Of a stretch of 64,000 nt of DNA, positions 147-53,824 are shown in pieces (positions within the stretch are counted from its first letter, which is position 1; every line of letters starts with the position of its first letter). Source of the stretch: Phoronis australis (taxonomy: Eukaryota > Animalia > Phoronida). The stretch spans positions 87,277 through 151,276 of the forward strand of contig NMRA01000640.1 in assembly GCA_002633005.1 (NCBI GenBank). Direction: 5' to 3'. The notes under the pieces were generated by a model. The model was not told where the DNA came from and did not search any database. It saw only the letters and a list, made by a program, of their open reading frames with translations. The translations under genes and the position numbers were made by a program.

Positions 147-322
147 CTTTGTCCTTTTCCTCAGCTGAGGTCGCCTCTTTCTGTTGTTTCCTACTCGGCT
201 CTTTCGATCTCTCCTCCCTGGTGGGCAGTGCCAGCATGATGGGGCGACGGTTGCCAGACTCCTCGTTCACCTGCACCAGCGTGCTGAACTGTATGGTGTA
301 GCGCCGCCGGCCAGCAGTGAAC
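147..322 (-). CDS. HUWE1: HUWE1 coding exon 38, WWE domain second half ([23 protein letters not shown])
   Basis: 176 nt, phase 2-1. Confidence 0.92.
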
Positions 323-3300
323 CTGAGGAGAAAATACAGATGATGGCTGAGATGTCGTAACGTTGAGGTGACAATTTAGACATATACTGAGAAGGTGGTG
401 TGACGCAGTCTACTTGCGGCAAGCTGGAGGCGAGGAATCGTAAAACTGAGATGAAAAATACTGAGAAATGTAAATAGAGGAAACTGGCCAGCCTTTAGCC
501 AACCTAAGCAGAATAGAGACAATTACAAAAAGTACAGAATAACACTGCAACTTGCAATGAATCTGAAAGGGATGAAAATACAGTTACTTTCAGTGCAGTG
601 CAGGCTAGAAAAACAACCATCCAAATAGGCTCACCACCCTCAAAATTACTAAATACCCGTGATGACGCTAACAGAGGTAAAGTGGACGGCATGTGCTTTG
701 GGTAATCTCAATGACCACATATCCTGGAATACAGTTATCCTCTGACACAGCACCGCCTACACTGAAAAGTGGTCATGTGGAAACATGATGAACGAAATAC
801 GTTATTCCGTGAGTGGGCATCAGTGGACGTGCCTTGGTCAGAAGTATACTGATCACATTGCCAGCCCTTGCAAACGCCTATATGCACTGTACGTGATTGG
901 GCTTAAGCCACTGGATCAAGGCTCCTTTGATTTTGCTTACTTCAGTCACTGCCTGTTTTAATAATTATGCAAACTCTCAAGTCAAAGGTGGTCGCCATAA
1001 GTGATAACTGAAAACTAAAAGGGGTTTCCCCGACTTTCAACCAATGCAAATGACTGAGTGTTATGACATCGCTTCCAAAACTTTAACAAATGAGAAGCCA
1101 TGTTAAACAACATTCAACAGTGCTACCTTTCATAGCAATGTGAAAGAGCGTAGGAATAAAGTCACAGCTGCCATTATTAAGCTATTAAATCAATATTCCT
1201 GGGGCGTGTGCAAGAAAAAACAAACTAAAGGGGCTCATCAGGCCCCTCCCCAAGTATCTTAACTTCACCAGAACCTTCCCTCATTTAATCACCTGACACT
1301 GGGCTCGCCCGCCCGGTACATGTCATCGATCACCTTGTTGTTACTGGCTGGGTACGCCTGCCACTTGCCTGTGCGGTCATCGAACCACTTCCAGGTGTGA
1401 GATTCACCCTGAAATGACAATTTCGAAAAATGTAACAGCATTTTTGACATTTCACTTCAAAGATTTATGCCAAACAAAATTTAGTCACCTTTTTGATATC
1501 ACTGTTTTGCCTTTTTGACAAATTTTACAAAAGGCATATTGATCACGTGACTCAATCAAAGTAAAAATCAAATTCTATAGGCTTTCTGCTTTCAGATATA
1601 ATATTTAAAGTTAAAATTCACAGCTTTGCAAATACGCATGAAAATACACAGAACTGGGCCTAAAAACCTTAAGAAACAGGGGGGATAATCCCATTTGTCC
1701 AACATGGTAGTAGCCCAGTTGGCCATGACATCAGTACTCACTGGCATGCTGCGTAGTTTGGCCTTTCTCTTGGATGCCACCGACACCTTCTCATACTGGT
1801 CCAGCAGTAGCAACAATGGAGCTAGCCACCTTAAACAATACATTGAAAACAGACGTATAACTACAGTAGTTAGATTTTCAAAAAAAGACCACCAACGTTC
1901 TTGGCACCAAAACCTGGAAAATACTCTGAGCAAACATTTTCTTCAATGCTTCCCAAATGATTTCTATTAGCTTTTTGTTTTTCAAACTATTTATTTAGCT
2001 CAATATTGTACGTCAACCATAACAAGATCATACCAACTATAACAAAATTTGTTAATTTTTTCATAAAACTACCACTTATCAACATGTGAAATGAAATTTA
2101 GCAATATTTTTAAAACTATTCAACAGTGGGCACAACAACAAGCCTATTAGACCCCAGGGCGGCCAACACATTCAGACCATAACGTCTAACATTCATGCTA
2201 AAATCTGTATTTTTTTAAGTGAAAATTTGTACAATTTCAAAGATTTTCAGGAAGTCTTAATTTCAAACACAAGATGGATCATTACACACTAAAACAACAA
2301 CTTTCAATTTCAGATGTTGTTTAACGAAAAAAGCAATGTTACGTAATAACTCAGCTCGTCGCATCGATATTTTTCGGCTCTTGCTGTCGGCATAGTCAAT
2401 TTCTTCGCACACTACGAAAGCCCCACAAATCCCGATATCTCGTAATTCTAAATACATAACAGTATTGTGAGCATTGGGGTTCTGAGTGTTCCAGACAATG
2501 TGATTAAACGAGGTTAATTCCATTCCCGTTTTCTAAATATAATGTAATTCATTAGTATACTCGTCTCCGAAATTTCTGTCTCAACATCTTAACATGGACT
2601 CCAAAGCATACGATATCCCATAATGCAAAATCAAGTGAGCGCATTTTCTATTGGTCAGTCCTTCACAAAAATCTGACCAATCACAAAAGGGAAATTTCAT
2701 TACGCAAATAGCATATTACACCGGAAGTCGGGATACGTCTCATTGGTCATTGATTTAGCGTTCTCGATAATTTCCGTCACTTTCGGGTGCTTCCTGCCTC
2801 GATCTTCGCCAATCATGCACTTCGCAACGCTGACAATTTCAAAGATAATTTTCAACTGATTTTTTGATGGGAAACAAATGCTCAAACTCCATGACACTTA
2901 AAAATCCGTACAAAGTTATTTTTAAGACCTCAAAGTAGGTAGAATACGCATTAATCTGTAACAACTGGCAGCCCTGACACCCCTCGTCACAGTTGGGGTT
3001 AGATGGTGTTATCAACTAAAGGTCAGTCAGAAACTCAAATCACAGCACGACAGTTCAGCAGAACGAAAGTCAAAGTAAGAGTTTCATCATTCTGATGTTC
3101 AAATCAATTTTAGCGCCTCAAATGGGCATCGAGTTAGAAAAATATTGACAATTTCTCTCAAAGAAAAACATCATCAACATCACAGCCTAACATCATGATT
3201 GCTTTGGCAGCAAGCCATTCCGATGACCCCCCTACTCACTTGGGCGTGGACGTGTCTTTGGCAAGCTGTTTGTCTGAAGAGACCATATAGAAGTACTGGC

Positions 3301-6300
3301 ACGTGTCTAGAAGTTGCACCAGGCTCTCCATTAGCACCATATTCTGAAGCACCTCCGCACAAGACATCTTCATCTCCTGTAATTGGACAATGAGTGTGGA
3401 TGCAGAGATAGTTAACAAAGAGAACAAAAACATAATATTTTGTTGTTCAACATTTTCCCCAAAAGGGAAATACAGTCACGCTTTCCATCTAATTTACTAC
3501 GTGTCAAATTCAAACTCAACCTAACTGAAGAAAGATCCCGACTTAACGTCAGTACACAACGGACTCTATTTAAATTTTGTTTTGAATACAGGGTCGCAAT
3601 TTAAGGCTTGAGGCCAATCCTTTGAAAGACTAAGTACTGTAGAATCTAACACGTAAAGAACATCCTTGGCAAGTGTTCTTACCTCAAAGAGCAATGTCAA
3701 TAGGTGTAGCCGTGTGGCCAGCTTGCCTGCCTCGGCCGTAGTGGACAGTCGGTTGATCCAGTCCTGTAGAGTGACCGGCTTTTGAGATTTCAGCTGGGAG
3801 GCCACCTCCAGCAGCTTCTGCACATACGTGACGATCTGAAAACAGAAAAGTCCGCCTTATAAAATAAAGAACTCTACTACAGAACGTGAAAGCAAGTCGA
3901 TAATGCAAACAATGCAAAGGTTTTGTATAAGATCCAACAAAATCTAAATGCGTGGCTGACCATTCAAGTCACTGCGCAACCCATCTCAACTGTAAGAATC
4001 TATTTATTACTTAACCATATTTGACCTTGCTCATGAAGCAAACCAATTTCTGTTTAAAGAGCAGCAGCTCAGAAAATCGTAACACAGCATGAGAGTTCAG
4101 AAGAACGAAAGTCATGTTGATAGATTTTCATCATTTCACTGTTAACTCATAGAAGAATGAAAAAGACCCCACAAGCTTCTACAAATAAAAACGACAATAT
4201 CATAATTTTGTGAACAGGACATTATAACACAAAAGCTTCCACCAAAATAGTGCAAAACACTAAAATCATCTTCAAAGAAATGGCCTGTCAGCATCAAAGA
4301 CAACATCAGTAATTGACATCATAGCTTCTATAACATCTGAAACTATGTTACAAGGACATATAATGTCCAGTTCATGAAGTCACTCTACCGTTAGCTTGCC
4401 AACAATCAGAACTGCGACAGGCTATCAACACTATTCTCTGCACAGGCAGAACACTACACTGCGGTGGTCTACCTCTGCAACTAGTTCCAGAAGGACTTCG
4501 TTCCTCCACTTGAAGCCATTTCTGTTGGTGACTACCACAATCAGGTCACACACGCGGTACACTGTCTCTGGTAGTGTGTCCAGTAGTTGTAGGCAGCCTA
4601 AATGATGTGTAAAACATTTCATAAGTAGGTCAAGTCTAAATAGGTCGAGAGTAAATAAGTCATGCACAAGTACGTAAAGGATAAATAGGTCAAGAGTAGA
4701 TAGGTCAAGGGTAAATAGGTCAAGGGTAAATAGGTCAGGGGTAAATAGGTCAATGATAAATAGGTCAATGATATATAGGTCAATGGTAAATAGGTCACGG
4801 GTAAATAGGTCATGGGTAAATAGGTCAAGGGCAAATAGGTCAAAAGTAAATAGGTCAATGGTAAATACGACAAAGGTTAAGAGGGCAAGGGCAAATAGGG
4901 CAAAGGCAAATAAGGCAACAGGTCAATAAGTCACTTGTAAATTCGCCAACATTAAGTAAGTCGATGGTAAAAAGTTCAAGTTATTGGAAAAATTCTATTT
5001 TTAGAGAAAGGGTCAGTTATTTCTCTAAGACCATTCAATACACCTAAAAGGTTAGCTTTAGAAAGGTCGTTAACTCATGAGATAACAGTTCAGATGGCGC
5101 CACAAAATGTGTCGCTTTGAGACAGTGAAGGACTAAAAAAGTGTCATACACCCACACAGTATGGCGAAACTAAATCCGACTCATTGTTTTTCTGCCATCT
5201 AGTAATGCATTAGTCCAATCAATTTACCTGGAAGCATGCTGTTTGTGAAGTCATCAATAAGGTCCTTGGACAGTGGTTCCTCCTCCTGCTGCTGCTGTTC
5301 GGTGGCACCACTGTCTTGCACCTTCTTGGCAAGTTCTTCCCCACCTGTTTTCTTCTGTTCATCAGACTGCTGAAAATACAGTTTTCATGTCTTATAGGCA
5401 AGACTGCAATGAACACAAGACTACAATAACAACATGCAAAAATTGTTCAAATAAATCTGGAAATTTAAGCTTGAGCACTTCCATCAGTTGACTGCTCATG
5501 GAAAACATGAAAAAGTGGACTTTATATACTTACAAGAAAGGTCGTAGAGGTCACACAAAGAGCAAAGGACATAGATAATGGTGATGATTAAACTGGAAAT
5601 ATACAGCTGCAGTAGACAGACATGTGACCCATTGTTAATGGTACAATATCAAGGTTTAATATTAAAAAGTGCTGTTTAGGTAGATGTATATCCACATCCG
5701 AAGTGAGCCCACAAATGAGAGAATTGGTGACAACTAATCATTCATAACCAGCAAAATTTTACAGCACGATCGTCTATTGTAATGGGAACTCTATGAAAAA
5801 CAACCAGTCAGAAAATCGTTACACAACACGAGAGTTCAGCAGAAAGAAAGTCATGGTGATGTTTTTTCATCATTTGGCTGTTGATCCCATAGTATTCCTA
5901 GCACCCTCACAAGGGTAAGCCGGACAAAACTATAGATTGGCCAAGCATTTACAAAATATTAGTGGATTGACAATGCTTTGCCGACAATCAGATGTAAGCA
6001 GGTGGTCTTAGTTATAATAAATGCACATGCTCACGAACTCTGCTGAAAATCATTGAAAACAATTTAGAGAGCCAATTTAGAGAAACTTAGAAACAAGATA
6101 ACATACCTAAATTTTTTGAAAGCAGACAAACTGTCTGTGAAATTTCAAAGCAAAAGAATTCTGGTTAGGCTGTTTTCTTTTATCACGACATCAAAAAATG
6201 TATGTTTAGTGAATTTTTATCAAATGCAAAAATTTCATTCTAGACTCCTGAGAATATGGTACGTTCCTCAGACCGCCTAAAACCTTGAACTAGATCATTA

Positions 6301-9300
6301 ACCACAGCGGCGGGAGACAAATCTCACCTGGTCCGTCGACATGAGCACATTCTCACCCAGCGACATGGCGATTGCTCGCATCATCTGCTCTTCTTCTGAC
6401 AGGGCGTCTGACATATTTAGCACCGTCTGAAGTACATTAATTTTAGTTATAATTTGTAGCCACTCGAAACACCTATCTTCTAAGGGCTGTTCCAGCAAAA
6501 TCTGTATGGGAGGGGGGGAAGGCACTTTTATTTCGTACCCACTGCCCATATTTTTCATTTACTGCTCCAACCCATGACCCATAATTTTTTAATTATTTTT
6601 AATAGGTTAAAATATAAAAACCAACACTTGCAAACAAATTGCCTCCAGGAGGACCTGTTAAGAACTTAGATGATTGACAGACAAGAACTAGTTGTCTTGT
6701 CCAATATTGTCAAAAACTAAAGTAGTCTGTGAGCAATACTTTTGGCAGCCACCAGGTGTCTCTGTTCACCATGTGTCTATAATTTCAATGAACATTTTTT
6801 CAATTATAAGGATCTATGAATCTCAAACTGTCTCCACGAACTCTTTTATACTTCTATGTCAAGTGAATATTGGAACTAGTTTATCTTACTCCTCATACTT
6901 TTTATTTAAAAATCATCAATTTTCTTATATGTGTTAACACCAGTTTAGTGTTGCATAACTTTTTATTTCAATAGGACTGCAGACAAACAGTTGGCTCAAA
7001 TCAAGTTGCCCATGACTTGATTAATGGCTTGGTGAACATATTGCACTCTGTTCACTAGAAATATGGGCTTTTTTGTATTGGATTTTTTTTGAGTTTTGAG
7101 GGCTGAAGTAACCAACCTGTCAACATTAACAGGTCAAAAAATACCACCCATTTTTAATGCATCACTTCTAACAGGAACGACCACCCATAATTTGTGTTTT
7201 TTTCTGAAGACCACCACCCATGAATTTTTATTTCTACTGCGGGCCCCCCCCTCCCACACGGATTTTACTGGAACAGCCCTAAATAAATAGAATTAACTTC
7301 AGTCTGCAAAACTGCATCGAACTATATCAAATTTTAAAGCACTTCGCACTGATGAGATGAAACTATTCGTCTCAATTTTTATCAATCTTTGTCAGATATC
7401 AATTGATGCATATACTGAGAGGAAAAATCCAGGCAAGTAATTGTTAGATTTACACAAACTTTTTTCTAGAATTATAACAATTCCATGCACTTATGGAATA
7501 CACATTAATTTTATTTCATTTATGGATTATATGTTGAAGGAATAGCCTACTCAGCCAATACCTGGGGTCCAGCAAGCCTTCCCATAAAGCAACACAATTA
7601 CAAGATGTACCAATGATGAACATAATTACAGTTTAATATAAGTATTGGTTAACATAATTATAGAATGAAACAATATTCAAAATCAAAATGGAACAACATT
7701 TACAATGAAAATCCATGAAACTTGATGAGACAGGGTTTAGAAAGTATGACGTATGGGTAACTAGTATCGAGAATTTAGCCACCCCTTTGTTTGTTGAAAC
7801 GCAGTCAAATTTAATAAGGCATCTTTAAGTCAAGGCAAATAAGCACGCACCTCTAGAGCGGAGGGAGGGTGAGATAACAGCCACTCAGTAGCCTGCTCCA
7901 GGTTCGCCGTGTGCTGCAGCGCCTCTGTGCAGTGCTCGTGTGTGAAACCCATATCCATCAGCTGAAACGGACATCACCAAGTCTCATTAAATGTGGACTA
8001 TAACAAAAGGACCATAGTGGATAACACAGGGACACTCGAATCTCGTTGTATTTATTCAAAATGCCATAAACATCCATCAGGCATATTTGGTGCCTCCTTT
8101 TTGTGCTCTTGGAGTTATTTTATATATTGTTGTCTGAATCTTAACAATTTTTTTCTCGGTTGCATTACTCTATTCATCCTTCCAATACCAACTAAGTATT
8201 GCTGCTGTGCTGTGGACAGCAACTCAGACGTGAAAAAGTTTGATAAACAAGACAAAAATGCGCAGATGCGTGATCTGAAATTCTTCACCTTCCCGACATC
8301 AGTGAGACATGAAAATGTGCCCGATTTCCAAAACTAGGTCATATGCTTTCTAATCTCTGGGACAAAGGAGAGTTTTATAGGCGTGTAATCCGGGATGGCC
8401 CTATTCGCACTTCTTTTATTTTTTCAACCTTAGAGCCATACGACAAGTTGTGTGCACAGATAGAATCAGGTGTATGGTAAAAACGTTTTTTTTTCAATTT
8501 TCCAATTTACAAGCCATTTCTGTTAAGTACATACCAATAGTTTCCAAAAAAGTTGATGAACTTTGTAATTACTGGTCAAGCTTTATTACATTAGCAACAA
8601 TAAACCTGGACAGTACTGGACAAACAATAAACCTGGACAGTACTAGACAAACAATAAACCTGGACAGTACTAGACAAACAATAAACCTGGACAGTACTAG
8701 ACAAACAATAAACCTGGACAGTACTGGACAAACAATAAACCTGGACAGTACTGGACAAACAATAAACCTGGACAGTACTAGACAAACAATAAACCTGGAC
8801 AGTACTAGACAAACAATAAAACTTAAAAATCATTTGCAAATTTGTCAAAATCTTGTGCTTGGAAATCTGTAAATATTCAACGCGAACAGGGTCTATTTAT
8901 TTAACTTCTGCGCCTCTTTACAGTCACATGCTTCGTACAGAATTTTGGTCACAATATTCATCAAGAGCTTTTCAGAGGACTTTTAAGCAAAATGTGCCGA
9001 CTTTTCAAGAGCCTACCGGACAAGAACCTTAAGCCTGAAGATTGCGACTGGAGCGGTGGTATGGTGAGAGTGTCCTTTTATCCATAACTTACCTGAATCA
9101 TTGTGACAGAGGAGAGTTTTAACAGCCAGCAGGTCATTTTTGTGACAATAATTAGACGAATATGAAAGGAATAATAACCACACACACAAAATTAATATGC
9201 TCATGGTTTTTGATTTTCAAGTGATGTTCAAGGCTTAATGTAAAACAGCCAGATCTTTCTTCAAATTCAAGGACTTATTAAGATGCACAACATGAATTAA

Positions 9301-12300
9301 ATGTCATGTTCTCACATTCACAGGGCATTCCTTCTGATGTACATTTCTTACCTGAGACAGGTGTGACTCGTTGACGGCAGGTGGAGGTCGAGGTGCCAAT
9401 ATATTGCTGTTCCTGAACAGGCCACTAGAGGTCACTGGGGTATTGTTAGCAGCTGTCGAAGGGCCTTCGTCAGTTTTCGACAGGTCTTCTTTCTCCTTGA
9501 CCAATTTTTCCTGAAGAAGAAAACCATTTTTATAGATACTTGAGTAGCATTTGACACCATGGACCATGCCCAAGAACACAACTTTAAATTAAGCATGATA
9601 AAATTATTTGCTTCTTAGTTTTAAATTGCCGTCCCCAGAAAGCAACAATTTTTTACATCCATTTACCAGCATCAGCACAAATATCATCCTGTGACAGAAA
9701 ATTTCGAAACAAACAACTAACACTACTGCAGTAGGTTTCAAAATAACCTAGACAGGCTCAGACAGAATTTTACCGGACTCTGTCAGATTTGAACGAGCTT
9801 CTGCCAGTCTAGTTGCAATGAAACACCGTTTTTGGCAAACTTTAGTTAATAGGCTTTAATGCGACGCTATTACCCCTAGCGGTTAATTTTTTATTGATGA
9901 ATGGGCTTGTGCGTTAAGCTGACGCGATCTCGACCTAATGACAATCACTGTGACAATGGACACTGGGGGATACAATATTCAAAAGAATCATTCCTCCTAC
10001 CTTAATTAAAGCCTCGCCTTTGATAATGTGACAGAGAATGGCCAGTATAGACTCAGACATACGGCCTCCGTACGTCTTTAATGGCGTTCTATTCCAAAGG
10101 TGGCTGATGGCACTGAATGCCGCCTAAAAGAAATGCAAATTTCAGTCGACAGACTTAAATATATATACAGGACAAAGTGCGTCAGTTCGGTTTGGGAGTG
10201 CGAAACAAATCAATGCAACTATAGACAACAAAATTGTGGTATAAATTCATCAGTTGGGGACAGTGAAAAATTAAGTACTTTACTCAAGGTTAGAGCTTGT
10301 ACCAAATTACGCAAATACGCAATACTGGCTGTCCCGAATTTAAGAATTTTAATGACAGATGATCATCCTCGACGTAACACACTATGGGGATGCCTGAAGT
10401 CAGCGCTTTTTACCTGGTTTTATGAATCATCAAGTTACATTTTGAGACTTCCTTGCGAATACAAAATGCAATGACTGCAACACAACAAAACTGACCCAAG
10501 TCTCCACCTTCAAGAAAATTCGATTTCTGATTGAGCTTTGGTGTACTGAGTACAAGAGACTATACGAAACTGGAGAACAATTGCCGTGGCCTAATTGATT
10601 GTCCAGGCAGTAAATGAAAGACAGCTCACCAGAGAAATACGTTCACATGCACAGGACTAAGTTAATGCTTAAAAACTTAAACCTAGAATACGGAGATTAC
10701 TAAATTTGATCAAAGGCTGCTGTATTTACCAAATGCAGCTGTTGAATTTGGTTTACAAATCACACAATTATTTGGTGCCACCACCGGATGTAACGCTTCT
10801 CAGCATTTTCTATGATGAACTGCAATTATCAAACATTAAGAATAACACAGCCCAAAATCTAAAGATCCAACATTGTCTCTTCATACCTTATGCGTCTTCA
10901 CCAGATAGTGCACGGGGCTGAATGGTGTGAAGCCCGGTTGAGAGGACTTGACCGGCAGCGTGTGCGGGGACTCTAGCACGTTTTTCGTGTTCACCATCTT
11001 CTCTATCAGCATAAGCCAGGCGTCGAAGAACTCACCCGTGCCATCTGGAAATTAAATCAAAACGACTTCAGTAATTGGTAAAGATGGTGAAAGTCACTTC
11101 ATCTGGACACACTAGTAGCACTGGGTGAACAAATCGGACTTATAAATAGTATTTACCAAATTTATGTTGAAGCAGCTGTACTTCTCGGCACTGCTTTGAG
11201 AATGAAGGCAAAAATGAGCTCACTACAAACTATTTTTGCACTTGATTACCCTTTCCATATTAGACATACTAGTATAAAGTAAAAAGTGTACAATTTAAAA
11301 AACAAACCGTGGCAGAAAGGTGCTATTTCACAGTCATGATTCTCGACAAAACTAATTATTGGAAAGTTTTACTTCTGTCATTATAAGCCTAACTTGTGTA
11401 GAAACATTCTGTTTTAAAATTTTCAGCAGTGTCACAAACATTCAAAAACTGGGAAAAATATACATTAGCAATGAGTTTTACCCTAAATTGATGCATTATT
11501 AAAGTAGTTATCATAATTCCTTGAGATCAACAAGAAAATAAAAACAGAAGAAGGACCTCCACTTTCACAGACCGGGTGAGAGGTTAAATCAAATAAAAGA
11601 AACAAAAGTCCTAAGAAAGTGTAACGTTAAATAAATGAAAATGTCACAATCGTGTCCCATTCACATGCTGAGCCTCACCTCTCATTGATCGAGTGGTGAA
11701 GTGGCTGGTGAACGGGGTCTATGTTGCACTGACATTATACCAAACCAACAACAACGATGTGGAGTGGAGATCAAATACAATGCGTCGAAGGAATACGATA
11801 AAGACAGTAGACTGCTAAGTTGTAGGTAAACTAACTTTGAAATGAACTTCAAAGCAGGACTTCATAAGTTCACATACGTATTAAGAAAAACTAATGATAA
11901 ACCGTGCATTCTCCAACTCCATGGAGACAATAACCAGTCTGACCCAAACCCAGAGTTATCTACACCCAGAGGAAGCAGTGTGGCTATGTGGATAAGTGCC
12001 CACTTCCTTTGCTCAAGGTTGCAGGTTGACGTCCCTCTGGGCCACACTGCTACATGTTTGAGTCAGGTCTTTAGCTCCCCAGCTCAGTTTTAACTATTAG
12101 CATAAAAATGGTTCCAGGTGATCACTGCACACATCTGGTACAACATGCACCAGATTGCCTATAATTATTTTTTACAATCACCAAACCAGTTTGTTTTTTT
12201 CTCAGCAAACCCACCCAACTTGGTTTAGTTCTCAAGTCATTTGAATCTCTTTGTTGAAGTCACTTAACTATCAGGTTACCTGAACTACACAGTAGCCACA

Positions 12301-27300: not shown

Positions 27301-30300
27301 TTTGAGAACAAATTGGCAGAGATTGTGAAAAAGTACAAATTTCTTACCCAAAATTTTAAAGTTAGAAGTTCTCAACCATTAATGTTTTTAACTTTAAAAG
27401 TTCTTACTCAAGAGTTCAGCGTGTCAAGTTGGGTCCTACCCATCTTTGAAAACTATTTAGAGAAAGAGAAATTCTCTTACAATTTACATATGCCCAGCAT
27501 ATCAAACCTTTTTACAGCAAAAGGTTGAAAATGAGGAAGTTCTAATAATTATGAAAGAAATTCACCACTAAATGTTTGAATGCATGCAGGATGAACAGTG
27601 CCTAGATTGACGGTATACGTTGTCCTTAATGTGGAGACAGTGCACTGAGAGACTGGTGATAAGCAGAAGACAAAAATACAAATGAAAAGCTCAACTAACA
27701 GTCAAATTTTAGCTAACTTGCTTAAGCAAAAGATCAGGCCATCAAAGGCCGACTGCACGAATCTACCTAATGATCTCAAAATAACAATGCTTGGCAGCAG
27801 CGTAATTGCTGAAATGAAACTTTGAGAAATTATATGCTGATGAAGCATTACATTAGCAGAGCTACGGAAACAATTGGTGGGTATGAATTCACATATTTTA
27901 CCTGGTATTGGGGCATCTAGGAGTGGCACTGATGTCGACGGACCAGCATTGCTAGTCGTCGGGGCTGTTGCCGTTGCCGTCACATCCGTTTCCATGGCGT
28001 GACTCTCGGGCGAGAGCGGCGACCCGTGCATGGCGTCCATGCTAGAGACAGATTCACTACGACGGGGTCGAAGCACAAACGGCTGCTCCCTCCGACAGAT
28101 CTCGACTTCGTGCTGCGGAAAAATCAAGTCAAATATATTCAATTGAAATTTCGAAAACAATAGCCAAGTTTATTCTAACTGTATGAGGACGGAAAAACCT
28201 GTATGTTTACACAATACATTGTAGCAGCATTTTTCCAGGAGCAATCTTTAAATACAAAGATACACCAACGATGCATACAGCTGCATGATGATTTAGCATT
28301 TCTTCGACCAGACAACAGAATGGCAGTCTGCGGTCTAGAGATACGAAATGCCGCAAATCTTCCCCTGGATAACTACCAAACATTGCTTAGAGGAAAGCAG
28401 GGGAAGCCACCTTTGAACTCCCCATTTACTGGTAACTCATCCAAATGCTTTGAAAAATAAGCAAGAATATGAACACAAACTGCTAACTCGACAGTTTAAA
28501 AACGGGGGGAATGAAGTAGTCAAATTTGTCTAAAATCCGGGTGTGCGTTCCAACACAGAAATCGAGTTGGAAATACATTAGGCAGGCACAAAATTGCACC
28601 TGGGCGTGTGTAAGCCAGCTGTAGTTCGATCAGTTTCATGTCACTTGTTCTTGCCTTGACAGAAGTAATATGTCAGGAGATCAGATAATCCTCCAAGTAA
28701 CAAAGCACAACAGCAACTCAAACGCACACATGTATACATGTATACATGTCTATGCGTGACATTCATAAAATCACTTACATGGAACCCTCTCACAGTCACA
28801 ACCTACCTCCAGTCTGTTGATGAACGCGTTCAGCCCCGACTGTGCTTGGAACGCAGTCATGTCTAGGTTGGTGATGAGGTCGACGACGCGCACAGCACGC
28901 GTCACAAACGTGATGTGCTCCGACCCGTCACCATACCAGTTGATGACCTTGAGCAAAGACTCCATCATGCCGCATGAGACCAGCGCCTCACCACCTACAA
29001 GATGGAGCAACAAATTGGTTAGCCAACAGGGTGCGTTAAACGCTGGTAGGAACCAAATCATATCAAGCTACAGAGCTCAACTTCCACATTTTTCAGATTC
29101 CAAACAGTGCTTTTAAAAGTAATTCCTCCCGAACAAGCCTGGCAGTTTTGAGCACAGGTCTAGACCTGCAATCTAGCATATCAATAAAAAATAAAAAAAA
29201 TATTCCAAGAACTCTATAACCGCCTACGTAGAAACAAAGGAAAAAGTGGGACATTTCTCAAGTTAGAACTCCTCGGTAAAAGTACGAGGGGGGGCTAAAC
29301 CTTACGGTGTTCAATTGTAAGACACAAAAACCAGTCTGACTTCCTAAGCTGAGGCAGTCAGGGGTGACAGTGCCTAGATGATGTAGCACTGTTTGTTCGA
29401 CCAGCTGTTTGATATACGGAAACAACTGGAGATCGTCAGTGCTTTTAAAGTAAGAATACGCGGACTAAGCCCATAACTAGAGCAACAACACAAAGATGTA
29501 TGAATGACAGTTCTGTATAATCGTTTTGGCTTTCTGTCACCTAGAAAACAACATTCAAATTCTGAAATACTACTTTTAGATTTCACCAATTATTCTGTCA
29601 TCTTTGTCTCTTGTGAATCTCATAGACAGAAAGCTTAATGTGCTAATTTGTTTTATCTTAATTGGAAGTCACAACGAGCAGAATTTACAATGACCACTTC
29701 AAATGAAATGTTAGCAGGTAAGACCTCATGCTACAGATGAGATTACAAGTAATTTCAGGTAATCACAGTGCAAACTGAATTTGGAATATTCCACTTAACA
29801 ATGCGAGTCAGTAACCAATCACTGACACATGATTTCATTAACACTGTGCATGGGAATATACAGTACACACAACATGACCAGGGATTCCTCCTCATGATGG
29901 CTGGGTAGAAGCTGAATTCATCGTCGGAGTGGTTTTCCTTCGTGACCCAGAATGAAGGGGAAATAACAGGAAAACAAGGTGGCCAAGCCATTCAGTAATT
30001 GACCTATCGCCAGGATTTTGAGTGACGGCTGAACTGACCAATCAGAACGCAGCATTCTTGATACACCTTCGTTTCCAAGCTGCCACTTTACCCGACAAAC
30101 AACACGTTGCTGGGTAAAACTTATAACTGGTTTGTTGACATTTCGCAAGGGGGCGGAGCTTGCGACAGGTCAGTTAGAATCTTGCCNATTCACCACTAAA
30201 TGTTTGAATGCATGCAGGATGAACAGTGCCTAGATTGACGGTATACGTTATCCCTAATGTGGAGACAGTGCACTGAGACTGGTGAGAAGCAGAAGACAAA

Positions 30301-33300
30301 AATACACATGAAAAGCTCAACTAATTGTCAAACTTTAGCTAACTTGCTTAAGCAAAAGATCAGACCATCAAAGGCCGACTGCACGAATCTGCCTAATGAT
30401 CTTAAAATAACAATGCTTGGCAGCAGCGTAATTGCTGAAATGAAACAATGAGCAATTATATGTTGATGAAACATTACATTAGCAGAGCTACGGAAACAAT
30501 TGGTGGGTATGAATTCACATATTTTACCTGGTATTGGGGCATCTAGGAGTGGCACTGATGTCGACGGACCAGCATTGCTAGTCGTCGGGGCTGCTGCCGT
30601 TGCCGTCACATCCGTTTCCATGGCGTGACTCTCGGGCGAGAGCGGCGACCCGTGCATGGCGTCCATGCTAGAGACAGATTCACTACGACGGGGTCGAAGC
30701 ACAAACGGCTGCTCCCTACGGCAGATCTCGACTTCGTGCTGCAAAAAATCAAGTCAAATATATCACATTGAAATTTCGAAAACAATAGCCAAGTTCATTC
30801 TAACTGTATGAGGACAGAAAAACCTGTATGTTTACACAATACATTGTAGCAGCATTTTTCCAGGAGCAATCTTTAAATACAAAGATACACCAACGATGCA
30901 TACAGCTGCATGATGATTTAGCATTTCTTCGACCAGACAACAGAATGGCAGTCTGCGGTCTAGAGATACGAAATGCCGCAAATCTTCGCCTGAATAACTA
31001 CCAAACATTGCTTACAGGAAAGCAGGGGAAGCCACCTTTGAACTCCCCATTTAATGGCAACTCGTCCAAATGCTTTTGAAAAATAAGCAAGAATATGAAC
31101 ACAAACTGCTAACTCGACAGTTTAAATACGGGGGTAATGAAGTAGCCAAATTTGTCTAAAATCCGGGTGTGCGTTCCAACACAGAACTCGAGTTGGAAAT
31201 ACGTAGGCAGGCACAAAAATTGCACCTGGGCGTGTGTAAGCCAGCTGTAGTTCGATCAGTTTCATGTCACTTGTTCTTGCCTCGACAGAAGTAATATGTC
31301 AGATCAGATAATCCTCCAAGTAACAAAGCACAACAGCAACTCAAACGCACACATGTATACATGTCTATGCGTGACGTTCATAAAATCACTTAGGGCTGCT
31401 CCAGCAAAATCTGTATGGGAGGGGGAAGGCACTTTTATTTTGTACCCACCGCCCATATTTTTCATTTATTTCTCCAACCCATGAACCATAATTTTTTAAT
31501 TATTTTTAACAGGTTAAAATATAAAATCCAACACTTGCAAACAAATTGCCTCCAGGAGAACCTGTTCAGAACTTAGATGATTGACAAACAAGAACTAGTT
31601 GTCTTGTCCAATATTGTCAAAAACTAAAGTAGCCTGTGAGCAATACTTTTGGAAGCCACCAGGTGTCTCTGTTCACCAAGTGTCTATAATTTCAATGAAC
31701 ATTTTTTCAATTATAAGGATCAATGAATCTCAAACTGTCTCCACGAACTCTTTTATACTTCTATGTCAAGTGAATATTGGAACTTGTTTATCTTACTCCT
31801 CATACTTTGTATTTAAAAATCATCAATTTTCTTATACGTGTTTACACCAGTTTAGTGTTGCATAACTTTTCAATTCAATAGTACTGCAGACAAACAATTG
31901 ACTCAAATCAAGTTGCCAACGACTTGATTAATGGCTTAGTGAACATATTGCACTCTGTTCACTGGCAATATGGGCTTTTTTGTATTGGGATAAGTTAGGA
32001 TATATGCCAATTGCATTTTTTGAGTTCTGAGGACTTACAGGAACGACCACCCATACTTTGAGTTTTTTTCTGAAGACCACCACCCATGAATTTTTATTTC
32101 TACTGCCGTCCCCCCCTTCCCACACGGATTTTACTGGAACAGCCCTTACATGGAACCCTCTGACAGTCACAACCTACCTCCAGTCTGTTGATGAACGCGT
32201 TCAGCCCCGACTGTGCTTGGAACGCAGTCATGTCTAGGTTGGTGATGAGGTCGACGACGCGCACAGCACGCGTCACAAACGTGATGTGCTCCGACCCGTC
32301 ACCATACCAGTTGATGACCTTGAGCAAAGACTCCATCATGCCGCATGAGACCAGCGCCTCACCACCTACAAGATGGAGCAACAAATTGGTTAGCCAACAG
32401 GGTGCGTTAAACGCCGGTAGGAACCAAACCATATCAAGCTACAGAGCTCAACTTCCACATTTTTCTGATTCCAAACAGTGCTTTTAAAAGTAATTCCTCC
32501 CGAACAAGCCTGGCAGTTTTGAGCACGGGTCTAGACCTGCAATCTAGCATATCAATTAAAAATAAAAAAAAATATTCCAAGAACTCTATAACCGCCTACG
32601 TAGAAACAAAGGAAAAAGTGGGACATTTCTCAAGTTAGATCTCCTCGGTAAAAGTACGAGGGGGGGGCTAAACCTTACGGTGTTCAATTGTAAGACACAA
32701 AAACCAGTCTGACTTCCTAGGCTGAGGCAGTCAGGGGTGACAGTGCCTAGATGATGTAGCACTGTTTGTTCGACCAGCTGTTTGATATACGAAAACAACT
32801 GGAGATCGTCAGTGCGGACTAAGCCCATAACTAGCGCAACAAAACAAAGATGTATGAATGACAGTTCTGTATAATCGTTTTGGCTTTCTGTCACCTAGAA
32901 AACAACATTCAAATTCTGAAATACTACTTTCAGATTTCACCAATTATTCTGCATCTTTGTCTCTTGTGAATCTCATAGACAGAAAGCTTAATGTGCTAAG
33001 CCATTTGAATTTGTTTTATCTTAATTGGAAGTCACAACGAGCAGAATTTACAATGACCACTTCAAATGAAATGTTAGCAGGTAAGACCTCGTGCTACAGA
33101 TGAGATTACAAGTAATTTCAGGTGATCACAGTGCAAACTGAATTTGGAATATTCCACTTAACAATACGAGTCAATAACTAATCACTGACACATGATTTCA
33201 TTAACACTGTGTATGGGAATATACAGTACACACAACATGACCAGGAATTCCTCCTCATGATGGCTGGGTAGAAGCTGAATTCATCGTCGGAGTGGTTTTC

Positions 33301-36300
33301 CTTCGTGACCCAGAATGAAGGGGAAATAACAGGAAAACAAGGTGGCCAAGCCATTCAGTAATTGACCTATCGCCAGGATTTTGAGTGACGGCTGAACTGA
33401 CCAATCAGAACGCAGCATTCTTGATACACCTTCGTTTCCAAGCTGCCACTTTACCCGACAAACAACACGTTGCTGGGTAAAACTTATAACTGGTTTGTTG
33501 ACATTTCGCAAGGGGGCGGAGCTTGCGACAGGTCAGTTAGAATCTTGCCCCCGAAATAATAATTACAAGCCATTTTTGCTGTAAACTGAATTAGCCAGCA
33601 TGATGCTATTTTGTGTTATTACTATCACATTGTACTCTACATTTTGTTATTCATGAGCATATAATGAATGGTAAAGCCAGAGTAGTACCACACTTCAACT
33701 TGATTTCCAGTTGGGGCAGCACACTTCAATACGATAACAGATTGAAGTGACTTTTACAACCAAGCACTGGCCACCGTCGGCTGCTCAAAGAAATTAACTC
33801 ACCACTCTCATAGCTGGCTAAGTGGTACAGGAAAGAAAACAGCGATGTGGAGAAGGGCTGAGGAAACTGTTCGGATGAAGGATCTGAAAAAGATTCAATC
33901 GTGTGATTGCTCAACTCCAATGTGTAACTTTTTTGAGACTTCGCACACCTCTGTGTCAGTCGTTTGAATATCCCCATCACGCAACAGTGGTAATTTGACC
34001 GTCGCAAAGAATTTATAAAAAAAAATGCTGAGAAATTTCACTGCGTGAAATCACTAATCAAGAACCCTGAACGCTGTCCAACAACTACTCAACTGCCATG
34101 TAGCATATTTGATGGCAACAGACTGAAAATAGAAGGTACAAAGTATTTTCCAGAGACAGCCATTAAACATTTTGTAGTAGCCTTTCTCCAGGAGCAACCT
34201 CAACTGCGTGAGGCTCACCAACGATGCACACAGCTACACCTCCATGTAGCATTTCTTCAACCAGGCACCAACACAACGGCTTGTTGCCTGGAGATACGAA
34301 ATGCACGACAGGCAGACATCACTGAACAGGACATAGGCAGCTTTTGGCTCATAAGTTATAAAGAAAGCTATCTTGAATTTGTACCAATCATTTCAGAATT
34401 CATAAAAACTGTATGGCAATAGCCAGATATAACGAATCCGTATTTTCAGAACCAGTTTGATGCCTGCTATTCACTGGAAAAAATGGTTCTCAAAATTATA
34501 TCTGACCATTACCAACGACATATTAGGGTATAAATGATTGATGAGTGATCAGAATTGATAATGATGATATATTTCACACAATATTTTATATATTTGATTG
34601 CCTATCAGAGAACAATGACAAATGATTAAAAGGTTTTCATTGTGATCAAACTAATATCAGACTGATCACCTATCATCAGACAGATTGGAATTCATACCAT
34701 ACAAAATGGGTAACAACACTACTGTTGAAGACTTTTAAAATAATGCAAATTAGAGAATTTCAATGGAAAAACCAAGGAACAACGAGGATATCTATTCAGT
34801 GACTACATTGTCCACTTTACGTTCAGTGCTGCAAACAATTTTGACAATGAAGATGTTTTCAAAGGTAGCTACAGTGACAATGATACACATCTTCTAAATA
34901 ATGTTCAGGATGATTCGCAGCACCCAAAACAAGAATGACAATTCCTCCCAAACTGCCCACAAAATTCAAATGTACGTAGCTAGAGCATGCCACTGAATAA
35001 GTGGGTTCAGCATATAATTACAACATTGACTGATTACCGTACCTGTCATCTGTTGAATACAGGTGCGCACTAGCACAGGTAGGAAGCCGTGGTACGACGA
35101 GGCCCCAGTGGCGTCGATTATGGCGTTTAGCCTGGAAGAAGCCATACGACTCGAAGTGGAAGATTAATACAAAACATTGACAACTACTCAATGTAAAAAA
35201 TCAGTAGCACAAACGGCATCATTACACAATGCCTCTAGGTTTGTGTGTATCTGTCACAGGCAATCTGCTTTCCTCATGAACTACTGGTGTATTCATCTTT
35301 AACAGCATTCAGTTCTAATTTGGTCCAATTTTATTCAGCTTGCGATACTAGTTGACATATTTGGCAACATTGGACCAAACACGCACTGCATAGTGTCCAG
35401 CATCAGATGTGCAAAGAAGTGTGGTTCATAAGAAAAGATTTGCATGCGGAAGAATAGAATCACGGCTTATGAGAAAAAAACATATAGTTTGAAAGATGCC
35501 AGCTGCATTAACGTGTAAGTTACTACGTAAATGAAAATATTAGCGAGTGTCAAAGCACTTACAATTGTTAAACAAAACTCACTTGGGATTTCTCTCGAGG
35601 TGTATGACTGATGTCAATGTCCTTAGTGCCGGTGCTTTGATTTCCTGAAATTGTTGCAAATCAAGTAATTCAAACTTATGTCAAACAAGGGTGTGGCAAA
35701 AGATCAAATCCTAGTCAACTCTGACATTCAATAGCGTGCAATTCAGGGGATTTTTACTTGACCTTCATGTGGAAATGGCCATTCTGAACCTGCCGTCACT
35801 TAATGCAGTAATTTCTCAAATGAAATTTCAATACTTCATCTTAAAACTCTATTTTCCCTGACAGCGTGTTAAGCTGGGTAAAAAACCAAAACACATTACA
35901 ACACAAACTCAGACTCAAACTTTTGCTCACCCAGAATAAGACTGTGATTTCCGTTGCCAGGGAATATAACCCAGACCAATTACAATTCATTCAAACACAG
36001 GTAATCTCTCAAAGCCAAATGACTGTTGATGACTTCTGTGCATATTTCGAAAGGAGGAGCATCTCCACCAGTCAGGTAAGTGTTGAACTAATAATTTGTA
36101 CTACAAATTTGTTCCTTTTCACAAAAAGCGACACATTAAACGAAAATAAATAGACTGAAAGCACGAGTGAGCTCAACTCACCACTAAACGCGCGTCCTTG
36201 ACCTGTAGAATGTCCACCAGCTCCTCAATAAAGCCACCGTATAACAATGTGTTCACATTATCCTGCATGGCATTGGAGTAAACTAAAAACACATCAACCG

Positions 36301-39300
36301 TAAATAAACATCCAACACACCTCAGTTTCTAATTCTATCCCTGATAACAAAAAGAGAAAAAACACAACAGCCCCTTAGCGCCTAACAGAGCTTGAGGCTC
36401 GACTGACACGCTTTCAGTTCACATGATTGATCAAACTTTTGAATGAAGACTAGTGTATTTTGAAGTTCATGCACCTGGGTTTATAAAACAGGCAAATGAA
36501 TTGGTGTGGCAGCAGGTTTCCAGGCAACACTCGACAGTCGAGAGACACCAACGATGCATTTAGCTGCGCTTTAGTCTAGCATTTCTTCGACCAGGCTGCA
36601 GCATATAAATCTGATGCCTGGAGATACGAAATGCAGGGGAAACATTGTTATGACACACATTGATAGAATACAGTTGTATTCAAGAAAACTTGAAGATCAA
36701 GTTAAATTTAATCATAGAATAAACAAACTTGGCTTAAGCATGTAAGTATGAGTCACTTAACTAGAACTTATTGTTAGGGTTTTTAGTGACTGCTTAACTG
36801 ACCAATCAGAACACAATATTCTTGACACACTTTCGTTCCCAAGTAGCTTTTTTACCAGAAAAATGACACGTTTTTGGTAAAATTTATGGTTTGTTTGTCG
36901 ACTTCTTGCAAGTGGTGGAGCTTGTGATTGGTCAGGTGTTGTAAGAGAGCTTTTTAAGAACACCTGACCAACATGCATACTGACCTAGGACAGAGATGGC
37001 CTGAAGTCTGGCTTGAACACATTTGACCCGTTTCTCATAGTCAGAAAATGAATGAGCAAGTCGCACGTGGGTCAGCAAAGACACCTGAAATACGACAACC
37101 GAAACAATGAAGCGATTTCCAACAAAACTCAAAATGTTAAAATGGTAGTGTGTTTACAATCTTCTGAAATTCCCTCTCTTATTTGGGACATTTAATTCTA
37201 GATATCGTACAAAAGTGAGTATCAGCAGAAGAATTTGGGAGCTCATATCTAATACTTTGTACGCTCTTCAACTTATTTGCGCTACTTTACCATTACTCTG
37301 GGTGACACGTAGATCTTAAGAATCCTACCAAACATGTGGGAACGTAGTGTCTACTCTGAGCACAATTTCCACAATCCAATGCTGATTTGAGAGTTGCCCT
37401 CCAGGCGACAGGGGAGACTATTGCAAAGTGCAGACAACAGACAACACAGGAGTAACTTGTGCCGCCACCTGGTGGACAATGGCAACATTTCTACCGAGGA
37501 TGAATGATAGGGGAAAGAATCTGTTTCGAATAAGTGTACTCCACATCAACTTAAGAAAATCAAGGCAACACAGTCTGTTGACAAGTAACCGTTACTTTGC
37601 ACAGGGCCACTACAAAATGATCAGAGCACTTTCGTTAACCCAGAGCAGACAAAAATGACCAACCTTCCTCGATTCAGGAACATTGTAATTCTTCACAAGG
37701 TCTTCCATTATTTCCGACGGCAGTTTCTTGATTTTGTCAACATTTTCAATGTGGATGCAGCCCAACACACTCGAGGAAAACTGAAACAGTTAGATCACAT
37801 AACACATAGCATTTCAACCATATAATGTCTAATTTCAGCTCCAGTTGTAAAGAGTATTTGATGCAGTTATCAACCTGGTCTTATTGTCAAGCAATCCCAG
37901 CAGTCATTTGGTCCAGCATCACGCAGTGTTGATTCACAGGCCAATCGTCTACTATGCTTTAAAGAGTTGCAGTTGAAGTCTTTGCCCATGCTTGAATTGC
38001 TCTGCTCCACACATTCAAAAGAAACTTATTTCAGCACCCATGATATTGCTATGGGTTGGCACTGGCAGTTCCTGTACATGTTGCCTTACTTATGCAGAAA
38101 ATTGTCCATAATGCAATAATATTCCACTTAAAATCAGGAGGCTGTCAGAACTTAGACTACACATAACACCAAAAATTTATGATTTAAAATAAAGCGTGTG
38201 ACCTAGTTGCTCTTACCTTTTTACTTGCTTTGTCCTCAACTTTCTCTTCATAGAATTCAAAGTGAAGCGTAGTAGCACTGCTTGGAAAGCTCTGCCAACA
38301 TAAATGACATGATTTTGTCACTAGGTCACGAGCAACAATTGCTGGCAAATAACAATAGAAACCTTATGTTCGAGAGATTGACTTGTGTTTTTTTATGTTG
38401 CTAAAGTTTTTCTAAGAGCACCTGGGCAGCTCAATATATCTAAATTAACATAAATACTTTGAATAAATACTTTAACATTAATGCAGCACCAAATTACAAC
38501 TCAAACAGATCATTTCACTACTTACTGATATAGGCAAATCTTGACAGCATGCGGCCAGTCCAAACCCGTTGTCTTTACCACCCCAACTCTATAAAAACGC
38601 GACGACACTGGGATTTACATGGTCACAAATGGGCTTTCACATTCATTGGAACAACAGGAGTGTTAACACCATAATGTTGCTATGAAATGGCAAAAATGCT
38701 TAATATGAAGAAAATTGGTGTTTCCTGCACTAAAACATGGTTGTCGGCATCTTTAAGTTTCTCACAGATGGCCAACTTAGATCTTTTTTATAGGATATCT
38801 AAGAAAACAACCTGTGACCAAACACGTGGCTCCAGTAGGCTTATTTTTATGACAACATTGCTATCTCGAGGAGGAGGGACAACACAATGCAAAACCAGAT
38901 TTCAGAATTCCTGGCACTAAGCTCAACCGAGTACGCAGCGAACAATGCGCTGTGGATTCACGGGTATTTGAAATGCGTTTGTCAAACTTTCCAGCATTAA
39001 CAGTGCAGCTCATTGCACTGTTAATGCCGGAACATCAAAAGCAGTCTTCAGCTCCGTAAAGAACACAGCAGCACTAACAGCATTCACCAGATGCGTGAAA
39101 ACAAGACCGGAAAAAGACCTGGCGGAGTCACTGTATTGTGGGTAAATACGACAGAACTTCAAAAAGGGGCATGGTTATGTTTGAGATGGTGCTATTCTAT
39201 CACATTTTGAGCATAATTAATATCGCATAAAGTTCTCATCATGTGAAAACAATAGCAGGAAAATGTTAATAACTGGACTCAAGTAAGTCTTCACATGAAA

Positions 39301-46000: not shown

Positions 46001-46030
46001 CTCGTTGCCGCCATCTTGGAAATAGGAAGT
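46001..46030 (-). other. HUWE1: Probable non-coding first exon of HUWE1 (5' end approximate)
   Basis: Minus-strand donor GAG|GTGAGT at 46000 directly downstream of a YY1 motif in a CpG-richer region. Confidence 0.6.
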
Positions 46031-50680: not shown

Positions 50681-51699
50681 CAGTATGCGGGGAGCAGACG
50701 GTACGGCCTTTCCAGACAGGCGAGCAATACCCCAATGTTACATCTCTTTCTGCTTGTAAGATAAAGTCGTATACATGTAAAAAGTTGATACATTATTGCA
50801 GTTTCATTTACCTATATACTGTACATTCTACATTTCGTCAAACACTTGTATCCTTTAGAGGATCTGGATCGCCTCTTTTAGTTTCAGATTTATTTTCTAC
50901 GTTATGTAAAATAACTAATTGTGTATGAAAGTGATTTATTTATGATCGTTTTCATATGTCATGTGTTCTTAACTTCAGTTTATCAATTTGTATATTTGTG
51001 TACAATAATTGTATATAATTTTTTTTGTATTTATTTAGCTTAGATACAAAGGGAATTGGCTCTTTCAAGGCCTGTATATTTATTGTACCAGGAAGAGATA
51101 ACCAGGAAGGGACAACTGTTTTAGCGCATTTTAACGTATTTTCAAAGGTGATTTCAAAAGTAAATGTTAAAGTAGTTTGGAATCCAAGTATTGTGTTTGA
51201 AAGCTTAATTCTTTAGTTATAAAATGACACCACTTTTGTCCCCAAATACTTCATATTAATGGCACTGGGATGCTTTGAACATGACTTGTTTTACCCTTCC
51301 AAAAGGTGCCTCTTCCCAGGCATGTACTCGGGCACGATCCTCTTTTTTGAACCAACAGATGTCACTAATATATGCAAATGAGGCTCGCATCGTCTACGTC
51401 ATACGACGTCATACGGCGCGAGCTTCCAATAGTGAATGACTTGAAACGCAGTTCTATCTGACTGGGCAGATCTAAGAAAATGAAGAACTCATCATGCAAG
51501 TCAATGTTCAAAGGACATTGAATGGTTTCACATGAAAATACATTTAATTGTACATGTATTTGGATACGTTTGCATGTGGGTATGCGTGGACTTCGTCATT
51601 TTGCTTAAATCCAGATTTAGAAGCAGGTGTTAGTCAAGAAATTAGCTGCTCCCGCCACGGTGGCCGGTGTCGTGGCGTCGCCGGGAAGTCTGATCCATG

Positions 51700-51962
51700 C
51701 ATGCGCAATTCGACGAACTAATGCTAGTCGCTGGTCAGCTCTGCTATGATTCATGCGCAATTCGACGAACTAATACTAGTCGCTGGTCAGCTCTGCTATG
51801 ATTCATGCGCAATTCGACGAACTAATGCTAGTCGCTGGTCAGCTCTGCTATGATTCATGCGCAATTCGACGAACTAATGCTAGTCGCTGGTCAGTTCTGC
51901 TATGATTCATGCGCAATTCGACGAACTAATGCTAGTCGCTGGTCAACTCCGCTATGATTCAT
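51700..51962. repeat. 52-bp tandem repeat x5
   Basis: Units start at 51700, 51752, 51804, 51856, 51908. Confidence 0.95.
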
Positions 51963-53245: not shown

Positions 53246-53824
53246 GTAGTTGGTAGTGTCATGGCGGAGGTGTACAGAAGGCGCAGTACTGAAAAAAGTG
53301 AGGGCTAAAGCCCCCTCAGCCCCCCTGTAGTGCACCGCCTATGGACCACTGGAAAACTTGGACTGAATTAATACGCTCCGAAAAACTTTTGCTTCACAAA
53401 TTTTCTCGAATTTTCGAAATACATGTATGAATGATTAAGTGCACATTTTCAAGGGCACTTAGACGACCTATGCTGCAAAAACGGAGACCCTAACAACAAT
53501 TGTCCTGGCCAGGGCCCTCAAATGGTAAGCCATACACTGATACCGAGTTGTCAATGTTCTCTTGAATTTTCGCTCTGATCAGCATTCGAAGTCTTTCTTT
53601 TTTGTCTTTCCCCAGCCCCAGAACTTTGTCGGTTGCCATGGTTTGACCCTGAGGCATGCAATTTTTTTGGGGTGGCACTCGCCCTCCCCCCGCTTACTAA
53701 GGTCCTGATGCACGGAGTCCATCGTTGGTCCAAGGTCAATGTTGTGTTTCAACACGCATTCGTTGTATAGCTTGAGCATTAAATTAAAGGTTTAAGAAAT
53801 ACAGTATCAGTTTTGCGCGTTTAA

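Follow-up and report, generated by a model that had tools for sequence, protein, structure and literature searches.

The subject of this work is a stretch of 64,000 nucleotides from the phoronid Phoronis australis (GenBank assembly GCA_002633005.1, contig NMRA01000640.1, positions 87,277 to 151,276 of the forward strand), hereafter the window, and a set of short elements with the features of small nucleolar RNAs (snoRNAs) lodged in the introns of the ubiquitin ligase gene HUWE1. This gene runs along the minus strand and extends past base 1, with its HECT end beyond the window. A coordinate-based model starting at 44891 comprises 36 GT-AG exons in a single open frame of 1,722 aa, which two more exons lengthen to some 1,800 aa; exon 36 has two possible donors at its end. 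The identification of the host as HUWE1, already advanced in the original prediction, is confirmed by its Pfam domains, since ten of twelve exon stretches matched a family and nine of these matches were to DUF908, DUF913, UBA or WWE, and by exon 19, which shows 93% identity to proteins named HUWE1. The best named match of exon 24 was a limpet protein at 60%, in a search that left out full-length HUWE1 proteins. Moreover, joints in stranded RNA reads revealed that introns 9-12 and 16-19 are spliced, and splicing is confirmed by RNA-seq for four of the introns that bear an element. Among the 37 HUWE1 introns examined there are at least 12 loci, one element in each of twelve introns, and all twelve lie on the minus strand, the sense strand of the gene:

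147..44891, minus strand: HUWE1 coding exons 1-38 (exon model, Pfam, protein identity and RNA joints).
36502..36634, minus strand: H/ACA element of intron 9, SNORA8-like, with predicted pockets for 18S U1056 (3+6 bp) and U1081 (3+8 bp).
34170..34304, minus strand: H/ACA element of intron 12, SNORA8-like, H box with G at position 6.
32686..32815, minus strand: H/ACA element of intron 13, the twelfth locus, with a canonical H box at 32757 and ACA at 32691; duplicate at 29313-29442.
30842..30976, minus strand: H/ACA element of intron 14, SNORA8-like; identical duplicate at 28217-28351.
26441..26573, minus strand: H/ACA element of intron 16, SNORA8-like, 5' pocket with a C-A mismatch beside the target and 3' pocket intact.
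24410..24484, minus strand: C/D element of intron 19, SNORD59-like, predicted 13-bp D' duplex to 18S A1031.
21145..21219, minus strand: C/D element of intron 21, SNORD59-like, 13-bp duplex; source of 18 sense reads extended at the 3' side.
17692..17824, minus strand: H/ACA element of intron 24, second family, 5' pocket with 12 Watson-Crick pairs to an 18S U at about 208-214; duplicate at 16521-16653.
13706..13839, minus strand: H/ACA element of intron 26, second family, 5' pocket with 11 pairs to the same site as intron 24; identical duplicate at 11650-11783.
5804..5879, minus strand: C/D element of intron 31, SNORD59-like, guide with one internal mismatch and 12 of 13 positions paired; possibly impaired.
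4065..4141, minus strand: C/D element of intron 33, SNORD59-like, 14-bp duplex.
3023..3096, minus strand: C/D element of intron 35, SNORD59-like, 16-bp duplex, one pair of which is G-U, with the rRNAs used as stand-ins.

Three families had been described beforehand, on the sense strand and with one element per intron, and self-BLAST, alignments and the exon model confirmed them at the intron numbers given: a first H/ACA family in introns 9, 12, 14 and 16, a C/D family in introns 19, 21, 31, 33 and 35, and a second H/ACA family in introns 24 and 26. The eleven loci counted originally are all borne out, but not the total, since intron 13 carries a twelfth locus of H/ACA type, and the snoRNA anatomy proposed for the elements was recovered in the form of boxes and stems. 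Cores of the paralogues are 63-91% identical versus 35-55% for their 60-nt flanks, and models built from the three families detected no additional strong copy across the 64 kb, and none outside the HUWE1 introns. In this line, a de novo screen for the hairpin-hinge-hairpin-tail architecture with H and ACA boxes recovered on the sense strand the seven H/ACA loci, all of which pass it. When folded as single sequences, eleven of the loci gave z-scores from +0.2 to -3.7.

Targets of the putative guides were sought in the ribosomal RNA (rRNA) of other animals, using 91 metagenome loci retrieved with a gapped motif of the complements of the window's guides; this motif selects for the target sites, so that the retrieval is no independent test of them. 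Small- and large-subunit rRNAs were identified by Rfam in the three loci checked, and a register check in seven loci placed the A and the two U under consideration at the equivalents of human 1031, 1056 and 1081 in every case. These positions are listed as modified in human 18S (Am1031, Psi1056 and Psi1081, where Psi stands for pseudouridine) in the available part of Taoka 2018 (PMC6182160).

The C/D copies all keep box C, box D', box D and a terminal stem, together with a degenerate C' box. In four of the five, the D' guide is antisense to rRNA over 13-16 bp, the criterion being at least 10 bp, and the intron-31 copy has an internal mismatch. When the intron-33 guide was shuffled 200 times its 14 bp were never attained, and a motif combining box C, guide and box D' occurs four times in the window versus not once in 100 shuffles, the fifth copy differing by one guide change. 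The D guides gave no credible rRNA target (8-9 bp), and a scan of viral contigs with the C/D motif gave no locus. As the D' guide points to 18S A1031, the target of SNORD59, and the score of the SNORD59 model (RF00273) falls short, we call these copies SNORD59-like.

As for the first H/ACA family, the best site of the 3' pocket (3+8 bp) is common to the four copies and that of the 5' pocket (3+6 bp) to three of them. U1056 and U1081 are both top-ranked in three copies, and U1081 only in that of intron 16. The two U, which lie 25 and 50 nt past the methylated A, would be selected in the order U1056 (5' pocket) and then U1081 (3' pocket), which is the order of human SNORA8. The pockets are 15 nt away from the box on the 3' side and 13 nt from the H box on the 5' side, for a criterion of about 14-16 nt. 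Over 23 named pairs, 97.8% of the cells in the four copies are paired, and three pairs show double-sided changes. The predicted targets are those of SNORA8 and the Rfam model fails, hence the name SNORA8-like. More generally, the family names used here rest on targets and motifs because no locus passes the Rfam threshold.

In the second H/ACA family, the best site of the 5' pocket, located 13-14 nt from the box, is a UU at 208-214 in the six 18S sequences fetched, and the next site has at most 7 pairs in three rRNA sets. On the basis of this pairing, an 18S U near 208-214 is the target that we somewhat favour. This site varies among animals, and around it the available part of Taoka 2018 (PMC6182160) lists only Psi210 and Psi218 in human 18S. 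For the 3' pocket, the 20 to 27 arm registers scanned in each copy yielded nothing but chance-level or inconsistent sites. No H/ACA family was found for the intron-26 copy in the Rfam scan, and, concerning SNORA31 (18S U218), the arm motif of the pair is absent from the H/ACA entries in the searched part of the human atlas. SNORA30 and SNORA37, which guide modification of 28S U4643 according to the accessible part of PMC9941101, were considered for this family and discarded, as the register check puts 4643 at a non-matching site.

The element of intron 13 was matched weakly by both H/ACA models (17 and 10 bits, and 17 and 20 bits for its duplicate). It folds as two hairpins with a z-score of -2.9, equalled by 3 of 200 shuffles, and it resembles the intron-24 copy with a z of 6.0 versus base shuffles, a null that ignores the H/ACA architecture shared by both. 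Its Rfam score to SNORA68 (RF00263), 20.5 bits with an E of 0.06, stays below the gathering value of 43 bits. Twenty registers scanned for each pocket gave only chance-level or inconsistent rRNA sites, and 18S U406 was ruled out by register as a target of the 3' pocket.

Evidence of expression comes from three RNA runs of the same species (X5, X6 and X7), about one fifth of each being read. Reads were examined at five of the twelve loci, those of introns 13, 14, 24, 26, 31, 33 and 35 being left out, and the libraries are standard RNA-seq ones, with mature RNAs of 75-135 nt beyond their reach. Every HUWE1 read falls on the strand expected. At the intron-16 element, depth was 4.2-5.7 in X5, 2.4-2.9 in X6 and 0 in X7 (7 reads on the stretch); five upstream bins were at 0, and downstream depth was 0.5-0.8 in X5 and 1.7-4.8 in X6. 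Reads from the intron-21 element had a median 3' extension of 65-92 nt, and the element of intron 9 showed weak sense reads in one of the three runs (depth 1.7, X5). Such a polarity fits a 5' end protected by a small nucleolar ribonucleoprotein (snoRNP) and an untrimmed 3' end.

Concerning copy number, DNA depth at the elements of introns 9 and 12 was 5.5-8, like that of their surroundings, and reached 5,048 and 3,633 at two repeats nearby in the same introns; the single-copy depth argues against a transposon family. The extra copies at 28217-28351, at 11650-11783/13706-13839 and at 16521-16653 are likely haplotype duplicates and were discounted, since only 0, 0 and 1 base distinguishes them from their twins and they belong to blocks of 96-99% identity that adjoin N breaks. 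Such tandem blocks, 92-99% identical and repeating exons next to N breaks, were seen at 11392-15105, 16497-17825, 18388-19561, 21471-23612 and 27560-33549, and they are likely both haplotypes assembled in series. The RNA reads, which come from other individuals, carry many exon variants.

Altogether, the cluster of twelve likely snoRNA genes in HUWE1 is real and well supported. The explanation that we prefer, with a probability of about 85%, is that the elements are snoRNA genes excised from spliced introns whose products guide 18S rRNA modification, that copies have spread within the gene, and that HUWE1 acts as a carrier with no particular regulatory tie to them. Once an intron is spliced out and debranched, exonucleases would trim it down to the core that the snoRNP protects. 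Guided by the C/D copies, fibrillarin would then methylate the equivalent of human 18S A1031; dyskerin would be led to the equivalents of U1056 and U1081 by the SNORA8-like copies, and perhaps to a U near 18S 208-214 by the pair of introns 24 and 26. Copies would have spread among the HUWE1 introns and been maintained through selection acting on their boxes, guides and stems, with the gene serving as a long, intron-rich and broadly expressed carrier.

A number of results weigh against this explanation. None of the twelve loci reached an Rfam gathering score: in a scan of positions 1-50000 at E<=10, the SNORD59 model gave only 22-26.6 bits for four of the five C/D copies, the gathering value being 45, and SNORA8 (RF00393) was listed neither there nor in separate scans of the intron-14 and intron-9 copies. 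A lack of Rfam hits had been named in advance as ground for rejection, and at the gathering level there are literally none, yet we do not regard this as decisive. Target pairing was computed on the rRNA of animals other than P. australis, and the pockets are weak when taken singly, shuffled arms matching their score in 25 of 150 cases for the SNORA8-like 5' pocket and 4 of 150 for the 3' one, and in 3 and 20 of 150 for the second-family 5' pocket of introns 24 and 26. Since single pockets are weak, what carries the SNORA8-like assignment is that the two pockets together hit both SNORA8 sites, and in the correct order. Covariation among the four sequences is not significant, being equalled by 16 of 500 shuffles. 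The H box is fully canonical at three of the seven H/ACA loci and has a G at position 6 in the other four, and the de novo screen also gave three background-like sense matches, those of introns 5, 8 and 23, which were left out of the total of twelve: the one in intron 5 has a perfect palindrome and no pocket, and three matches likewise arose in the antisense control over this stretch of 39 kb. Between the C/D copies and the 3' splice site there are 140-1,193 nt, a distance that in mammals is typically about 65-100 nt. On the expression side, the 10 and 8 reads assigned to intron 19 all carry the letters of intron 21, and their loose ends resemble the 3' flank of intron 21, with no 5' loose end listed. 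The intron-12 copy had no reads in any of the three runs, and no mature small RNA was seen, in libraries unable to show RNAs of 75-135 nt.

The alternative that best survives, somewhat unlikely in our view, is that only some of the copies are active and the others are decaying duplicates, the candidates being the C/D copy of intron 31, the elements of introns 12 and 13 and the 5' pocket of intron 16. The guide mismatch of the first, the lack of reads for intron 12, the lack of a convincing target for intron 13 and the C-A mismatch of intron 16 speak for this reading. Nevertheless, boxes and stems are kept in all copies while the flanks have decayed to background, the lower stem on the 3' side of the intron-12 copy retains a double-sided change, and short RNAs are not expected to be captured in these libraries.

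A second and clearly less probable alternative is that the snoRNAs also regulate HUWE1, its mRNA being tuned either when snoRNPs assemble on the pre-mRNA or when cleavage yields snoRNA-capped transcripts, which would tie the ligase involved in ribosomal-protein quality control to ribosome biogenesis, as described for NOP56 and DKC1. Reads that begin at the snoRNA and extend downstream in introns 16 and 21, and weakly in intron 9, are compatible with this idea. Moreover, classes of snoRNA-capped and snoRNA-retaining transcripts exist (PMC10557570, available part), and Tom1/Huwe1 degrades excess ribosomal proteins (PMC5026473, available part). The read numbers are small, though, having been drawn from about one fifth of each run, and ordinary precursors left untrimmed at the 3' side would give the same pattern. 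In one run, moreover, part of the downstream signal of intron 16 has an unexplained loose end at 26154. A broader version, in which HUWE1 would be a hub of ribosome biogenesis whose introns bred H/ACA guides with new pockets, one of them for an 18S position not listed as modified in human, and whose snoRNA-capped, 3'-extended transcripts would let the snoRNP supply set the ligase level, seems to us improbable to the same degree. Finally, that the elements are copies of a small transposon, such as a miniature inverted-repeat transposable element (MITE) or a short interspersed element (SINE), or chance repeats, as the missing Rfam gathering matches and the MITE-like hairpins of the same introns might suggest, is largely refuted and extremely improbable: the many copies in random orientation that the original prediction had named as the mark of a transposon were not found, with single-copy DNA depth at the two of twelve loci measured, twelve of twelve elements in sense and one per intron, no strong copy of the three family models outside the HUWE1 introns of the window, and conservation centred on boxes and rRNA complements.

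Taking the elements as snoRNA genes, their spread within HUWE1 would have been partly local. The intron-to-intron duplication in cis proposed at the outset is supported for the C/D copies, whose closest pairs are neighbours (introns 19 and 21 at 91%, introns 31 and 33 at 82%), but not as a strictly stepwise process, as the closest SNORA8-like pair, that of introns 9 and 16, is not made of neighbours. The flanks retain no trace of a duplicated unit. The accompanying proposals of a lineage-specific relocation into HUWE1 and of a functional coupling to the degradation of ribosomal proteins by Tom1/HUWE1 are hypothetical. Both duplication in cis into adjacent introns and host switching have already been described (available parts of PMC2817437 and PMC2653536), with four SNORD58 in RPL17, eight snoRNAs in TAF1D/JOSD3 and chicken paralogues in adjacent introns as cases that share with HUWE1 the single element per intron, the nearby paralogues and guides that are conserved amid an otherwise drifting sequence. 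HUWE1 differs from those hosts in being a ubiquitin ligase gene and in bearing at least 12 loci in 37 introns, most human hosts containing a single snoRNA (PMC2817437, available part). As a host of snoRNAs it is apparently unreported, since no such report was found in the open literature or in the searched part of the human atlas supplement, subscription papers falling outside this search.

The human hosts named in the original prediction agree with the available rows of Jorjani 2016 (PMC4914119), which place SNORD59A/B in ATP5B (ATP5F1B), acting on 1031 via D', and SNORA8 in TAF1D, acting on 1056 with the first hairpin and on 1081 with the second. SNORD59A/B (RF00273), the functional homologue of which in yeast is snR54, and the C/D copies of HUWE1 have in common a length of about 75 nt, the D' guide, 18S A1031 as known or predicted target and three U before box D. 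In contrast, there are five copies in HUWE1 and two in ATP5B, and the 22-26.6 bits obtained stay under the gathering value. The accessible part of the atlas lists this family for tetrapods and teleosts only (PMC4914119), and chicken U59 likewise uses the 5' guide (PMC2653536, available part). For SNORA8/ACA8 (RF00393), the predicted pocket targets are the same and, on visual inspection, the arm motifs agree with the human sequence even at some bases that do not take part in pairing, while the four HUWE1 copies have unrelated stems; the human family is listed as vertebrate-only in the available part of PMC4914119. Judging from read polarity, the RNAs that start at the snoRNA and extend downstream may be akin to snoRNA-capped or snoRNA-retaining transcripts (SPA-lncRNA and snoRT), which are characterised by a 5' end at the snoRNA, an extension into downstream exons and a poly(A) tail. 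The UU at 208-214, the best site of the second family, may correspond to the yeast Psi211 site, near which it falls in a comparison made by number and not by alignment. In yeast, 18S Psi211 is guided by snR49 (PMC5699541, available part).

Other observations concern the host and its surroundings. On the minus strand, 46001-46030 is a probable 5' non-coding exon with a pyrimidine-rich run and a downstream GT donor at 46000, and the motif after the run is one we take to be YY1-like. If transcription starts in this run, HUWE1 could be similar to the genes with a 5' terminal oligopyrimidine tract (5'TOP), to which many snoRNA hosts belong. Human HUWE1 hosts let-7f-2/miR-98. In intron 5, 38980-39100 (minus strand) contains two hairpins, the second being an almost perfect palindrome some 20 bp long, which pass the H/ACA screen with no pocket and give weak matches to microRNA models only. 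A C/D-like candidate in intron 12 (34605-34678, minus strand) was not counted, its 9-bp match to 28S being within chance, with 29 of 200 shuffles of another guide reaching at least 9 bp; eight sense reads of run X7 over it differ in the D box of the candidate.

With regard to repeats, a palindromic element occurs in intron 12 (34440-34497) and in intron 21 (20991-21054), each about 140 nt or less from a snoRNA. The first copy has a DNA depth of about 5,000 versus 6 and is abundant in RNA of both strands, and it is a high-copy MITE-like repeat. A second dispersed high-copy repeat, with depths of 270-3,600, was found at 36776-36935, 30000-30176, 33363-33539 and 61857-62175. An element roughly 800 bp long and bearing terminal inverted repeats is present in three copies of 88-94% identity (6476-7280, 22261-22827 and 31389-32146, in introns 30, 20/21 and 14) and likely represents a non-autonomous DNA transposon. 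Tandem repeats lie at 4621-4979, 8596-8823, 12360-12641 and 51697-51962, the third of which yields a spurious mir-2060 match (12377-12468) that was rejected. Stop-free Cys/His-rich stretches at 54081-54765 (minus strand), presumably THAP-like and near inverted repeats at 53821-55123, are possibly a decayed transposon. Among the metagenome contigs, two carry a 5S rRNA gene linked to the ribosomal DNA unit (L019:12753-12871 and L029:1667-1785).

Seen as a whole, HUWE1 of P. australis offers a clean invertebrate case of putative snoRNA host switching combined with multiplication within a gene. The twelve loci, none at a gathering score, suggest that invertebrate counterparts of SNORD59 and SNORA8 exist and are missed by the Rfam thresholds, and the second H/ACA family predicts a pseudouridine near 18S 208-214 for which no human counterpart is listed. 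Should the 3'-extended RNAs prove regulatory, which is speculation, rRNA modification would be linked to the quality control of ribosomal proteins.

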